Source of the DNA: Dictyostelium discoideum
Lineage: Eukaryota
DNA length: 64,000 nucleotides
Direction of reading: 5' to 3'
Assembly: GCA_000004695.1 (NCBI GenBank)
Contig: CM000151.3
Location: forward strand, 3,008,001 to 3,072,000
Shown here: positions 26,912 through 31,514 of the stretch, piece by piece
How positions within the stretch are numbered: position 1 is the stretch's first letter
Layout of the letters: the number at the start of each line of letters is the position of its first letter
Program-made: the position numbers and the translations under genes
Notes under the pieces: generated by a model
Databases searched by the model: none
Seen by the model: only the letters and a program-made list of their open reading frames with translations
What the model was told of the DNA's origin: nothing

Positions 26912-27300
26912 GATTAAATATATACTAAATAATTAATCCATACTTTTTAGTTTTTTATCCAGTCTTTTTTAAAAAAATAGATAATATGAGATAATTATTG
27001 ATTTTAAATTATTTTGTTAAAAAATGAATAAGAACTTTTTTTTTATAGATTAAATTTTTTATTTTATTATTTATATGTGTTAAATGGTTTAAACTAAAAA
27101 ACAGTTGGACCTATCAAAGGTTATGAAAAAACTCAAGAATTAAATTTGAGATAATAAAAAAATAATAACGACCCCATCAATGAACAATTTTTTCAAAGGA
27201 CATCTACTTTTTAATTAAAAAGTAGAATTTGAAAAAAAAAAAAAAAAAAACAAAAATAAAAAATTAAAAAAGAAAAAATTAAAAACATAAATTAATTCCA

Positions 27301-27790
27301 ATAATCCTCTTACTAATAAAATTAAAAATTTAGGAATTGGTATTAAAACAATTGATATTACAAAAGGAAATTAAAATTTTTTTTTTTTTTTTTATTTTTT
27401 TTTTTTTATTATTTTTAAATTAAAGCAATTGCCTTATTGTAAAAATGTCCAGTAGTAATATTTCCTAAAGCTTCCTCGACTGATGCATCATGTGCATAAT
27501 TATTAGTTTGGTATAAAGAAAATGGAGAATTTGATCAATATCTTTATATTCCAAAAATCCAGATGTTGTTTTAGTTGATCCAGTTGTTATGGTTACTGCG
27601 CCACCAAGTTAATTTTCTTCAGGAGTGGCTAATGCACTTTAAACTTATTTTGAAGCGAGACCATGTTTTCAAAGTTTTGGAAATAATTAACCAATACAAA
27701 ACCATCATTGATTGGATATAACCTTTCAAAAATATATTATAAAATCATAAGTGAAAATATTGAAAAAGCCATGGATTCTTTTAAAAGAAA
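27301..27790 (+). pseudogene. Degenerate fragment copy of glycerol dehydrogenase gene (end of exon 2, a shortened intron, start of exon 3)
   Basis: About 80-85% nucleotide similarity to 23668..24160 by eye, with in-frame stops (TAA) and indels. For example, KCPVVIFP...GEFDQYLYIPK with frameshifts. Confidence 0.7.
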
Positions 27791-28099
27791 TTGGAAAAAT
27801 AAATATCGATATAAAATTTAAAAACTAATTATTGATTGTTGGATATTGTGTAACATTGAACTTGAAGGATAACCAAAAAATTTATTTTTAGAATTTAATT
27901 ATTTATCTTGATAAATAAATTAAAAAAAAAAAAAAAAATTAAAAAAAACTTTTTTCCCCCACATAAAAATTTTTCAATTTATTCCAAAAATCAACACACA
28001 GATAATATATACATACAACAATATCAGGTGTATTAAAGAAAGTATCAACTGCTAGAAAGGTTATCAAAACATCAAACGAGAAATATAATCCAAAATACA

Positions 28100-28400
28100 T
28101 TACATGGACAGGCAATTAACATCTTGAGCGTATTAATTATACTTACGAACGAATATCTTGATGAATCTAATAGTTTATTGGAAGAGTGTGGCGGTGAAGA
28201 ATTAATACATAACACTATAGCAGCAGTTAATGGAAACACACACAAAATAAAGGAAAATAGAGTTGACGCATCCGTTTTAGTATCACAAAAGTTTGTAAAA
28301 CTCATAAACTTCTCATCGAAACTAATACGCAAATATAATATGTCACCAACACTCGTAGATGACACAAAAAATAAAATTTTCAGAGAATAAATAAAATAAA
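28100..28400 (+). repeat. Copy 1 of an unidentified ~250-300 bp repeated element (ORF-like ...CGGEELIHNTIAAVNGNTHKIKENRVDASVLVSQKFVK...)
   Basis: About 85-90% identical to 29400..29640. The short ORFs on both strands are degenerate between the two copies. Confidence 0.6.
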
Positions 28401-28453
28401 TAAATTTACTTACAAATAATATTTTTTAAACGAGAATAATTAAATTAAATTAT

Positions 28454-28496
<43 letters not shown>

Positions 28497-28699
28497 ATTC
28501 TATATCAATTATAATCAAAAGAAATAGAGCTCGCTTAATTTCATGCAAGGTATCAAATTTTTTTTTTTTTTTTTGGTAATAAAATTAATATCAAAAAAAA
28601 AAAAAAAAAAAAATTGAATGGATTTGGAATTGTTTAAAAAAAAAAAACTTTATCTGTTATTTCTTTTAATTTTAGTTCTTAAATATTTTTTTTTTCCTT

Positions 28700-29010
28700 T
28701 TTTAAAAAAAAATAAATAAAAATTTATTATTTATTAATTATATTAAATATTTGAGTTGTATTTCTTTTTTTTTTTTTTTATTTTTTTTTTTTTGGAATTT
28801 ATAAATTTTATTATTTTATTTTTATCTAAATTATTGAGTGACTAATGAATGATCTTGAATAATAGTAATACTAATACTAATTGTTAAAAAAGAAAACATT
28901 TTGACTTTTATTTTCAATTCATTTTCAGAACAATAACGAGAGTACATTGAGTATTATGAGTTGGTGAAACCCATTATTTAATACATATACTCTTCCACCA
29001 TAAACTTTTG
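28700..29010 (-). pseudogene. Fragment copy of the 3' end and 3'UTR of the TRAF-like gene 30057..31514, chimeric at its inner end
   Basis: TGAGTGACTAATGAATGATCTTGAATAAT...AATACTAATACTAATTGTTAAA...CATTTTGACTTTTATTTTCAAT matches 29990..30170, then diverges. Confidence 0.6.
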
Positions 29011-29246
29011 GTGGCATTTTATATAATATATAATTTATTATATTTTTATATATTTTTTTTTTTTTATTATTTCTTTTTATTGTGAATTTTTTTTTTTTAA
29101 TTATGATCAAATTAATATTAAAAATTAATTAAAATAAAATTAAACTTAAACCTAAACTTAACTAAATTAAAAACAAGTATCCAAATAAACAAAAGTTTAC
29201 TTATTTTTTTTAACCTTAAAAAAAAGATAAACAATTTATGAAAATT

Positions 29247-29299
<53 letters not shown>

Positions 29300-29399
29300 T
29301 GAACAATTCAAAAATCTTTTTAATTTTTTATATATTTTTTTAAACTACGACATTGTCAATCTCATTAAATTTTTAGAAATTTATTTTTTTTTTTTTTTT

Positions 29400-29640
29400 T
29401 CAAATTCCAAAAATCTAATAGTTTATTGGATAAATGTGGCGGTGAAGAATTAATACATAACACTATAGCAGCAATTAATGGAAACACACATAATATAAAG
29501 GAGAACAGAGTTGATGAATCTGTTTTAGTATCACAAAAGTTTGTAAAACCCATATACTTCACAACAAAACTAATACGCAGATATAATATGTCACCAACAC
29601 TTGTAAAGGACACAAAATAATGTAATTTAACATAATAAAA
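29400..29640 (+). repeat. Copy 2 of the unidentified repeated element
   Basis: See 28100..28400. Confidence 0.6.
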
Positions 29641-29745
29641 ATTGTCCAGTAGTAATATTTCCAATAGCAGCATCAACTGATGAACCATTTCCATCATTAT
29701 CAATTTTATATATAGAAAACGGAGAATTTGATCAATAATTAAGCA
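29641..29745 (+). pseudogene. Second short fragment of glycerol dehydrogenase exon 3 (KCPVVIFPIAASTDEPFPSLSILYIENGEFDQ*)
   Basis: Similar to 23814..23920. It ends in an in-frame TAA. Confidence 0.65.
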
Positions 29746-30056
29746 TTATATATTTGTTGCATTTTTTTTCTTTTTTTTTATAAACTTTAATGACAATGTT
29801 TGTAACAAGATCAACTAAAATATATTGTTATAAGATTAAATAATCTATTTTAATTATTAATGTTTATTCTATTAAAATTATATTAAATTAAATGTTTTGT
29901 TAAAACATTCCCAAAAAAGGTTAAAAAAATACTTTGTTTTTTTTTTAAAAAAAAAAAAAAAAAAAAAAACTATTATTATTTATTAATTAAATTAAATATT
30001 TGAATTATATTTCTTTTTTTTTTTTATAAATTTTTATTATTTTATTTTTATCAAAA

Positions 30057-31514
30057 TTATTCAGTAACTAATGAATGATCTTGAATAATTTTAATACTAA
30101 TACTAATTGTTAAAGAATTATTTGAAAAGAAACCATTTTGACTTTTATTTTCAATCCATTTGAACCAACCATTACCATTGTTATTGATGAAATTATTTGT
30201 ATGAGTATTTTTATAATTTTTAGTGGGGTCAATATTTTTAGCTTCTAAACTATATTTTACAAGTGATGGACGATCATAAATTTTATAGAGGAAAATACTT
30301 AGAAAACCTTTAACCTCATTGTTACCATTTGGGTAGAGCATGATAAAGAATTTAGAAGAACCAATTTGAAAGAATGGACTATTTAAACTCTTTGATATTG
30401 GATATTCACGTAATTTACGATCCCAATTATTGATTACCCATTTCCCTTTATAAACATTATTACCACTGCCACCACCACCACCACCACCACATTCATGTGG
30501 TTTACTATTTATTACAGTTGAATTTACAGTACTCTCTAAATAAAATAATCTTTTTTCCAAATCTCTATTTTGTTTTTCTAATTTTCTATAATCTTGATTA
30601 CATTCATCCAATTGAAGTTTATGTAAATCCATAACATTTTGAATATAAAAGATATGATTATTATTTTCAGATAAATGTTGAGAAAGTTGTGAACGAAGGA
30701 ATCTTTTATTACAACCACCTGCTTTGTAGAGACATGAAATCTCCTCCATTGGACAATCGGTTTCTAAATGATGATTCATTAATTTTTTACCAATGGATGC
30801 TGAACATTTACTACATGTGATCATAAGAGTGTCACATTCACTCTCGATATGTTTATTTAATTTCTTTCTCTCTATTAATTCTGAACATTTCTCGCATTGA
30901 ATCAAAGAGTAATCGCATACCGATTGATTGTGATGTTCAATTTGATTCTTTCTAATAATATATTTACATTTGTTTGAATTGTTTGGACACTTTATAAATT
31001 GATATTGACATTCTTTCAAATGATGCTCCAATAATTCTACCTTTAAAATCTCTGGACATCCATTCTCACAATGAACTGCCTCTCCTTGAAATTTACTTTC
31101 TTTAAATTTATTTGGACATATCACTTTTAATGCACGAAATGCATTCTCTAAAAATATATTACGAGATAATTCACTTGGTAAAGTTTTAACTTTACAACTT
31201 GGACATTCTTGTTTAATTGATAATTGACGATTCCAACTTTAAAATAAAATTAATAATTAATAATTTTATTTTATTTTATTTTATTTTATTTTATTTTATC
31301 TTATTAAAAAAAAAATAAAAAAATAAAATACTACTACATACCATTCGTGACAAGAAATATGACCATTTCTACATTGTAAAACATCAAATGATAAGGTTTC
31401 TTTTTTAAAATCAATGACACTATTAAAACAAATTTGACATTGAAATGGTGTTAAATCATCTGAATTTACAATAATATCATCAATTAAATAATCTAAATTT
31501 ATTTTTTTATCCAT
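30057..31514 (-). CDS. TRAF-like RING / TRAF-zinc-finger / MATH protein (second paralog, convergent with the first). Exons 31332..31514 and 30057..31244.
   Basis: The RING is split by the intron: ...SCHEC|WNRQ...CPSCK. GTATGT donor and AAG acceptor, phase 2/1. The MATH-like C-terminus has a GGGGGGG linker. Confidence 0.75.

Follow-up and report, generated by a model that had tools for sequence, protein, structure and literature searches.

An interval between two TRAF-like genes of Dictyostelium discoideum, read as the decayed remains of a two-gene cassette patched from its neighbours

The interval and its pieces

The window analysed here is a stretch of 64,000 nt from Dictyostelium discoideum (contig CM000151.3, positions 3,008,001 to 3,072,000 of the forward strand), and it is extremely AT-rich. 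Two TRAF-like genes within it, T1 and T2, are convergent and are separated by a 3.3-kb spacer (26709-30056) that is rich in poly-A and poly-T tracts of 20-60 nt. With a probability of roughly 0.78, this spacer is non-functional DNA that records the arrival of a cassette of two small genes, here called X and S, its duplication and its death, the gaps having been filled from sequence close by. At its core the interval appears to contain the decayed remains of the X-S cassette, and the patches are pieces of T2 and of gldA, a gene upstream of T1. The pieces are listed below; loci from other genomes that were used in the comparison carry the labels L001 to L012.

27326-27781, plus strand: gldA-psi1 part a, a copy of gldA 23674-24163 with an intron remnant
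27782-27930, plus strand: gldA-psi1 part b, the end of the coding sequence (CDS) and 3' flank, a copy of gldA 24575-24709
27985-28573, plus strand: S copy 1 (S1), a pseudogene with its flanks, CDS-equivalent 28021-28390 (protein and locus comparison)
28681-28924, minus strand: copy of the T2 3' untranslated region (UTR) and last ~31 codons (blastn, collinearity with L004)
28921-29010, minus strand: remnant of X (comparison with L002, L009 and the X family)
29011-29363, no strand: former intergenic (shared promoter) region of X and S2, AT-rich, with a poly-T tract of ~60 nt (locus comparison)
29364-29617, plus strand: S copy 2 (S2), a pseudogene in which an upstream remnant is joined to codons ~49-118 (blastn, locus comparison)
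29618-29737 (robust core 29635-29737), plus strand: gldA-psi2, the last nucleotides of intron 2 and first ~113 nt of exon 3 (blastn, junction comparison)
29738-29806, no strand: AT-rich filler between psi2 and the conserved T2 3' flank (sequence comparison)

The flanking genes and the donor segment are as follows.

23281-24629, plus strand: gldA CDS, upstream of T1 (Fe-ADH Pfam match on the orthologous L003 model)
23674-24709, plus strand: gldA donor segment, the source of psi1 and psi2, comprising the end of exon 2, intron 2, exon 3 and ~80 nt of 3' flank
25401-26708, plus strand: T1, the upstream TRAF-like gene, stop codon 26706-26708 (sequence reading; zf-TRAF match on the L003 model)
29807-30056, minus strand: 3' flank and UTR of T2 (sequence reading, comparison with L002 and L003)
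30057-31514, minus strand: CDS of T2, a genuine TRAF/MATH gene with one intron (zf-TRAF and MATH_2 matches on the L003 model)

The Pfam assignments are precomputed matches on L003 (strain ACTFIT), which is 99.6% identical to the window, and they bear out the names that a preliminary description of this DNA had given to the flanking genes. The same description listed a series of similarities between fragments, all of which are real (E 1e-21 to 1e-142) in a self-blastn with the dust filter and stricter scoring; an unfiltered permissive run is dominated by AT-rich low-complexity matches. It had also pointed to a comparison with other strains, and ACTFIT carries the whole mosaic, collinear over 9 kb at 99.6% identity. 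As this is an independent assembly, the mosaic is no assembly artefact.

Remains of S, X, gldA and T2

The two copies of what had been described as an unknown repeat of ~250 bp align at 28164-28379 and 29412-29628 (89.4% identity over 217 nt, E 1e-76), and each retains one long reading frame. Rather than an anonymous element, the repeat reads as the pseudogenised remains of S, an intronless gene for a protein of 124 aa, with protein relatives and a ratio of nonsynonymous to synonymous substitution rates (dN/dS) of ~0.2. A search of 5.8 billion proteins returns 6 relatives in 5 genomes, at single loci and with 1-2 per genome; all are small hypothetical proteins from the D. discoideum group. Intact versions of the gene occur in D. 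firmibasis (L001) and in strain ACTFIW (L002). Between species its dN/dS is 0.18-0.37, which makes S a genuine, constrained coding gene under purifying selection. S has no match in Pfam, PDB chains, PADLOC models or antitoxins, and no recognisable fold or family. In D. firmibasis (L001 10001-10375) the intact gene is apparently alone, beside a trehalase gene, a context unlike that in D. discoideum and D. citrinum.

In S1 the start codon has changed from ATG to ATA (28021-28023), and an in-frame TAA (28117-28119), a 3-nt deletion and a 2-nt frameshift near 28131 follow. The similarity first placed at 28100-28400 is real but its extent was not; the homology unit covers 590 bp (27985-28573), and from ~28406 onward its 3' flank is of the S2 type. 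In S2 a deletion of ~180 bp between (A)ATC microhomologies has taken the start codon and 48 codons, and the last codons have been replaced. In a neighbour-joining tree the first window copy (win_c1) groups with the first ACTFIW copy (FIW_c1) and the second (win_c2) with the second (FIW_c2), S1 and S2 being ~90% identical. This pairing across strains makes the duplication of S older than the split of the AX4 and ACTFIW lineages.

The second cassette gene, X, is a minus-strand open reading frame (ORF) lying head-to-head with S in L002, L004 and L005. It is intact in strain ACTFIR (L009), as a gene of 170 codons with a dN/dS of ~0.5. In the window 33 codons are left, namely codons ~76-93 (28921-28974) and, at 28966-29010, the ATG with ~15 codons of the N-terminus. 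An internal deletion of 178 bp took the region of the presumed catalytic Asp. The adjoining DNA is also retained, the window segment 28972-29380 matching L002 9360-9696 and L009 15729-16136.

On its other side the X remnant is fused directly, at an ATTT microhomology, to the copy of the T2 3' end. This copy aligns with the real T2 3' end (28681-28924 against 29927-30161, 77.4% over 261 columns, E 1e-57); the coding part, from which 11 nt have been deleted, matches T2 at 94% identity. A chimeric TRAF 3' copy had been placed at 28700-29010; the T2 copy is real, but the right part (28921-29010) is the remnant of X. Nor are the S element and the TRAF copy separate pieces, as had been described. 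The offsets to the second unit are nearly equal (+1248 bp for S, +1246 bp for the T2 copy), and window 27970-28924 is collinear with a single-copy segment of L004 (9915-10778), from which it follows that S1 and the T2 copy are one copied segment. The T2 copy is not present in ACTFIW or ACTFIR, and a search for its remnant downstream of S1 in these two gave poly-A matches only and is uninformative. An extra short, local duplication of the T2 3' UTR region, with ~75% identity, occurs between S2 and T2 in both strains (L002 10554-10675 and 10794-10930; L009 17012-17149 and 17277-17422; window 29945-30091), another sign of a spacer that repeatedly copies its surroundings.

Both gldA fragments are unprocessed (DNA-duplicated) pseudogenes: they are homologous to gldA, have kept non-coding DNA and are disabled or truncated. 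As intron or flanking DNA is kept, they are not retrocopies. psi1 aligns at 27326-27784 with gldA 23674-24163 (82.4% over 490 columns, E 2e-142). A remnant of intron 2 lies between its exon-2 and exon-3 parts at ~27370-27425, and part a contains several stop codons, two 1-nt deletions and one 3-nt deletion. The copy of exon 2, intron and exon 3 described at 27301-27790 is therefore real but longer, as psi1 runs on to 27930. Part b has an alignment score of 58, compared to 35±5 in shuffles (0 of 300 shuffles reach 58), and is joined to part a across an internal deletion of ~410 bp at an AAAT microhomology. In all, the gldA stretch copied into psi1 measured at least 1 kb, beginning at the end of exon 2 and extending into the 3' flank. 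An orthologous psi1 with an identical deletion junction is found in ACTFIR (L009 13477-13920); this common structure marks a single old capture, afterwards lost by ACTFIW. psi1 shows the D. discoideum-specific gldA state at 29 of 32 sites, along with ~10% private changes.

psi2 matches gldA 23815-23917 at 29635-29737 (88.3% over 103 nt, ungapped, E 4e-31), and possibly starts at ~29618. It abuts S2 directly, just as had been described for the second short exon-3 fragment; the junction is at an ACAAAA(A) microhomology, and psi2 stands in place of the S2 3' end and flank. It is not present in the ACTFIR or ACTFIW intervals, and it has one of the eight old psi1-specific changes, the gene state being kept at six. 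Both observations point to a second, independent capture, taken directly from gldA and specific to the AX4 lineage. A further change that seemed common to psi1 and psi2 is the ancestral base, seen in D. citrinum. The gldA locus of D. dimigraforme (L008) is not syntenic and was left out of the comparison. With psi1 old and psi2 specific to the AX4 lineage, the association of an element with a gldA piece in both units, to which meaning had been attached, is coincidental. The closest non-dictyostelid relatives of the gldA protein are gamma-proteobacterial glycerol dehydrogenases (54-59% identity), suggesting that the gene is of old bacterial origin.

A lineage series and the history of the interval

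The orthologous interval differs between lineages as follows.

D. citrinum (L007): a simple repeat of 766 bp; no S, X or gldA pieces
D. cf. discoideum (L004): X and a single S
ACTFIR (L009): psi1, S1, X and S2; three cassette ORFs open
ACTFIW (L002): S1 (with an in-frame TAG), X (conserved start = ATA) and S2; no psi1
AX4 and ACTFIT (L003): the mosaic wreck, 99.6% identical

As the interval of D. citrinum is without S, X or gldA pieces, the cassette appears to have been acquired. ACTFIR and ACTFIW are sister lineages with 94.7% identity. Both are labelled D. discoideum, and over 9 kb (23000-32000) they are ~91-92% identical to AX4; they are probably cryptic sister species rather than D. discoideum strains.

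The identities of the pieces, their presence or absence in each lineage, their relative ages and the junction sequences are observations, on which the following history may be built. The two convergent TRAF-like genes would have started ~0.8 kb apart, with simple repeat between them, the state of D. citrinum. The head-to-head pair of X (170 aa) and S (124 aa) would then have landed in the interval in the D. discoideum complex, as in D. cf. discoideum. Duplication of S to the far side of X, and the capture of at least 1 kb of gldA with its intron beside the new copy, would have given the state seen in ACTFIR. In the AX4-type lineage, a break between S1 and X may have been repaired by copying the S2 3' flank through to the T2 3' end; primed in S1 and rejoined in X, this event would account both for the TRAF 3' copy and for the loss of the 3' half of X. 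Further decay would have cost X 178 bp and S2 its start and 48 codons, the S2 3' end would have been replaced by the independent gldA patch of ~120 bp, and S1 would have gained its start-loss, nonsense and frameshift mutations.

The most parsimonious origin of the TRAF 3' copy would be this single repair event in the AX4 lineage. A different order of events is possible, if distinctly less probable. The S1 unit would have been ~1 kb long from the outset (S, flank and T2 3' end), the ancestor of ACTFIR and ACTFIW would have lost the flank and the T2 copy, and AX4 would merely have lost the 3' half of X. Such an order fits the collinearity of window 27970-28924 with L004 9915-10778, and one loss is enough since ACTFIR and ACTFIW are sisters (94.7%). 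It requires two extra deletions, however, where the repair model explains the copy and the missing 3' half of X by a single event. The 94% identity of the T2 copy, against ~90% between S1 and S2, also suggests a younger event, on counts that are small.

The patches would derive from microhomology-assisted, template-switching repair of double-strand breaks, by synthesis-dependent strand annealing (SDSA) or a process like microhomology-mediated break-induced replication (MMBIR). The copies are DNA-level, local and of different ages, and are placed where ancestral sequence is missing. Junction microhomologies are 4-7 nt long: ATTT (T2 copy and X), ACAAAA(A) (S2 and psi2), AAAT (psi1 deletion) and (A)ATC (S2 deletion). 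The pieces resemble duplicated pseudogenes and the templated filler of SDSA, MMBIR, fork stalling and template switching (FoSTeS) or microhomology-mediated end joining, in that an intron is kept and the donors are 1-6 kb off on the same strand. The patches, like templated repair filler, lie exactly at missing ancestral sequence, with junction microhomologies of 4-7 nt, and one donor has been captured repeatedly. They differ from polymerase-theta filler in being longer than is typical (120 bp to at least 1 kb), and from the known repair systems in that the mechanism is read from end products alone.

Several points weigh against this account. The order of events and the mechanism are a reconstruction from six genomes rather than observed. 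The TRAF 3' copy could be ancestral; it would then have belonged to the S1 duplication unit from the start and have disappeared once, in the ancestor that ACTFIR and ACTFIW share. ACTFIW has no psi1, so that a secondary loss has to be assumed there. In DNA of ~80% A+T, microhomologies of 4-7 nt are fairly likely by chance. When a source was sought for the filler segments (27166-27325, 27931-27984 and 29738-29806), only low-complexity matches appeared. Finally, the copy count of S and X covers annotated proteins and the window DNA only.

The preliminary description favoured local duplication and rearrangement over a transposon. This holds, as the pieces are DNA-level copies of neighbours, the intron is kept and a transposon signature is lacking; that they are unannotated pseudogene debris is likewise confirmed. 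If, instead, S or the X-S pair belonged to a mobile element, its activity might have assembled the fragments, but this is very improbable. The differing contexts of the pair would suit such an element: it lies between TRAF genes in one case and near a phosphodiesterase gene (L005) in another, while S is alone near trehalase in L001. So would the proximity (~4.7 kb) of an X paralog to a DDE_Tnp_4 transposase gene, and of the Acytostelium pair to an ORF with a faint DNA_pol_B_2 match. Against this, S and X occur at 1-2 copies per annotated genome, neither contains a transposase, reverse transcriptase or integrase domain, and homology between species stops at the CDS boundaries. Terminal repeats are absent, the sole inverted repeats being poly-A/poly-T tracts with 70-82% complementarity, and ARAGORN finds no tRNA gene in the 64-kb window, which bears on the TRE class. 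The gldA and TRAF pieces, moreover, are copies of immediate neighbours. Of the classes DIRS, Skipper, DGLT-A, TRE, Tdd, DDT and thug, neither the dispersal (among annotated proteins and in the window DNA, where the copies are local) nor the terminal repeats and domains are seen here, and transposon involvement in the interval is unlikely.

The preliminary description further took the interval as repeated segmental duplication of anonymous DNA that illustrates how the TRAF/MATH family expands. All copies are indeed local and DNA-level, and a fragment of a TRAF gene has been duplicated. This reading is nevertheless improbable. What was copied is the T2 3' UTR with ~31 terminal codons, a by-product that includes neither a zf-TRAF nor a MATH domain and that ACTFIR and ACTFIW lack. 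The repeated element is a gene rather than anonymous DNA, and the interval has at its core an acquired cassette, which the description had missed.

Whether the debris could itself encode something new, a chimeric gene or a functional RNA, is raised by ACTFIT_003014 (P0006), a spliced product of 118 aa that a pipeline called across psi1, S1 and S2 in ACTFIT. This is very improbable. The model threads short exons between the stops and frameshifts of unrelated gene fragments, a protein search finds no such product in any other lineage, the interval has no Rfam match, and the ORF of the X remnant ends after 30 codons. ACTFIT_003014 (L003 10001-12227) and a 128-aa model over psi1 in ACTFIR (L009 13400-13918) are best read as annotation artefacts, while intact S-family ORFs have been left uncalled in ACTFIR (S1), P. 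violaceum and Acytostelium. The debris in the window is ordinary pseudogene wreckage.

A separate feature dominates the start of the window. Positions 1-7703 are the reverse complement of 8083-15785 (self-blastn, 100% identity over 7,703 bp, no gaps), with a spacer of 379 bp. Chromosome 2 of AX4 has a known inverted duplication of 1.5 Mb with arms at 2263132-3015703 and 3016083-3768654, likewise with a spacer of 379 bp (PMC2643946, PMC11193728), and the repeat at 1-15785 is its already known inversion point, which places the window on that chromosome at 3,008,001-3,072,000. As the locus lies inside this duplication, a mirror-image twin of the interval between T1 and T2 should exist in the AX4 reference, by arithmetic on the published repeat coordinates at ~2,993,730-2,997,077.

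The X-S pair and its relatives

X appears to be a distant relative of VapD and Cas2 with a predicted fold of that type, rather than a VapD equivalog. Its sequence scores 27.8 bits against the NCBIfam model NF041506 for VapD (cutoff 100, E 2.5e-6), 15.3 bits against Pfam PF09827 for Cas2 (cutoff 23.8, E 0.024), and E 1e-4 against the PADLOC model for Cas2. An exhaustive HMMER search gives a family of 20 relatives, where a word-indexed search gave its own gene model only. They come from Polysphondylium, Tieghemostelium, Acytostelium and Planoprotostelium, from other Dictyostelium paralogs and from metagenomes, and all are annotated as hypothetical. When the family profile is compared to the PDB, VapD chains are the top five (best E 0.0027). 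The AlphaFold2 model made from a 15-sequence alignment has a predicted local distance difference test (pLDDT) score of 83.8 overall and >94 in the core, compared to 37 for a single-sequence run. In a Foldseek search of the PDB its top eight matches are VapD (probability 1.00, E 3e-4 to 7e-3, template modelling score 0.67-0.76 by target length), followed by Cas2. Predicted strand 1 ends, in 13 of the 15 members of the family, in a 'YD[IL]' motif that may correspond to the site of VapD D7. Cas2 and VapD carry their catalytic Asp in strand 1, and PDB entry 6zi1 is a D7N mutant by its title.

Two further observations concern the family. P0023, a protein of 1782 aa with ankyrin repeats from the bivalve Potamilus streckersoni, matches the X family in four stretches (E 1e-4), and may be an animal protein with a fused VapD-like domain, or contamination. 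The X paralog P0010 occurs at several loci in some genomes (at least 90% identity, 7 cluster members). At its locus in D. cf. discoideum ACTFIY (L006; 1-251, 5001-5459) it lies ~4.7 kb from the DDE_Tnp_4 (Harbinger-type) transposase gene; no repeat structure was found around the gene at this locus.

X and S are adjacent in the D. discoideum complex (L002, L004, L009) and in D. citrinum (L005). The surroundings of the pair vary, between the TRAF genes in the former and near a phosphodiesterase gene in the latter. Beyond these the pairing is as follows.

T. lacteum (L010): a 129-aa gene 3 bp from the X homolog, tail-to-tail (blastp to S, E 2e-15)
P. violaceum (L012): an uncalled ORF head-to-head with X (S-family hidden Markov model (HMM), E 4e-36, 48% identity)
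X-paralog locus (L006): an S-like ORF head-to-head with the X paralog (E 2e-5, weak)
Acytostelium (L011): an uncalled 149-codon ORF head-to-head with X (tblastn, E 0.02, weak)
D. firmibasis (L001): an exception to the pairing, as S stands alone and X is absent within 10 kb

In Acytostelium subglobosum, an ORF of 628 aa (L011 1501-3387) with the faint DNA_pol_B_2 match lies directly beside the X / S-like pair, and may be the remnant of a Polinton-like or plasmid-like element.

X resembles bacterial VapD (of VapXD and VapDW) and Cas2 in its predicted fold, in the sub-threshold profile matches and perhaps in the 'YD[IL]' motif of predicted strand 1. It differs in having an acidic C-terminal tail, and in its 28 bits compared to the equivalog cutoff of 100. 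As in VapD-VapX and VapD-VapW, a small conserved partner gene lies directly adjacent. The X-S genes, in contrast to VapD modules, are eukaryotic and monocistronic, lying head-to-head or tail-to-tail with no operon, and S, unlike VapX and VapW, has no sequence similarity to antitoxins. These likenesses are ones of sequence, gene arrangement and predicted structure, and any function of X or S is one that we infer. Eukaryotes do have toxin-antidote or selfish two-gene elements, such as wtf in fission yeast, Spok in Podospora and peel-1/zeel-1 in C. elegans. With these the X-S pair has in common tight gene linkage, polymorphism of presence, absence and pseudogenes, shifting locations and repeated decay; it has no homology to them. 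S also differs from toxin-antidote partners in persisting alone, intact and constrained, in D. firmibasis. It is a tentative and rather unlikely proposal that X and S are the eukaryotic counterpart of the VapD toxin-antitoxin module, an interacting conflict or immunity pair across Dictyostelia, with X as a VapD/Cas2-fold nuclease and S as its dedicated partner. It would have stayed intact in some members of the D. discoideum complex (ACTFIR), decayed in part in others and died in the AX4-type lineage, which includes the laboratory strain. If true, wild lineages could differ in a system that works as toxin and antidote, in incompatibility or against pathogens.

What had been an anonymous intergenic junkyard becomes a dated series: gain of a cassette, duplication, two captures of gldA, one capture of a TRAF 3' end, and microhomology deletions. 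The interval thereby offers a small, naturally occurring case of patch-type repair in a genome of extreme AT content, and also a warning for annotation, as pipelines call chimeric genes across the debris. Among the lineages of the D. discoideum complex the X-S pair is present, absent or pseudogenised. The searchable literature contains no paper that links VapD to Dictyostelium or amoebal genomes or describes the X-S pair, and so no description of this VapD/Cas2-fold family with a conserved partner gene in Amoebozoa. Should the pair function as its bacterial relatives do, it would represent a two-gene module of the VapD type that is rare in eukaryotes, testable in a tractable model organism.

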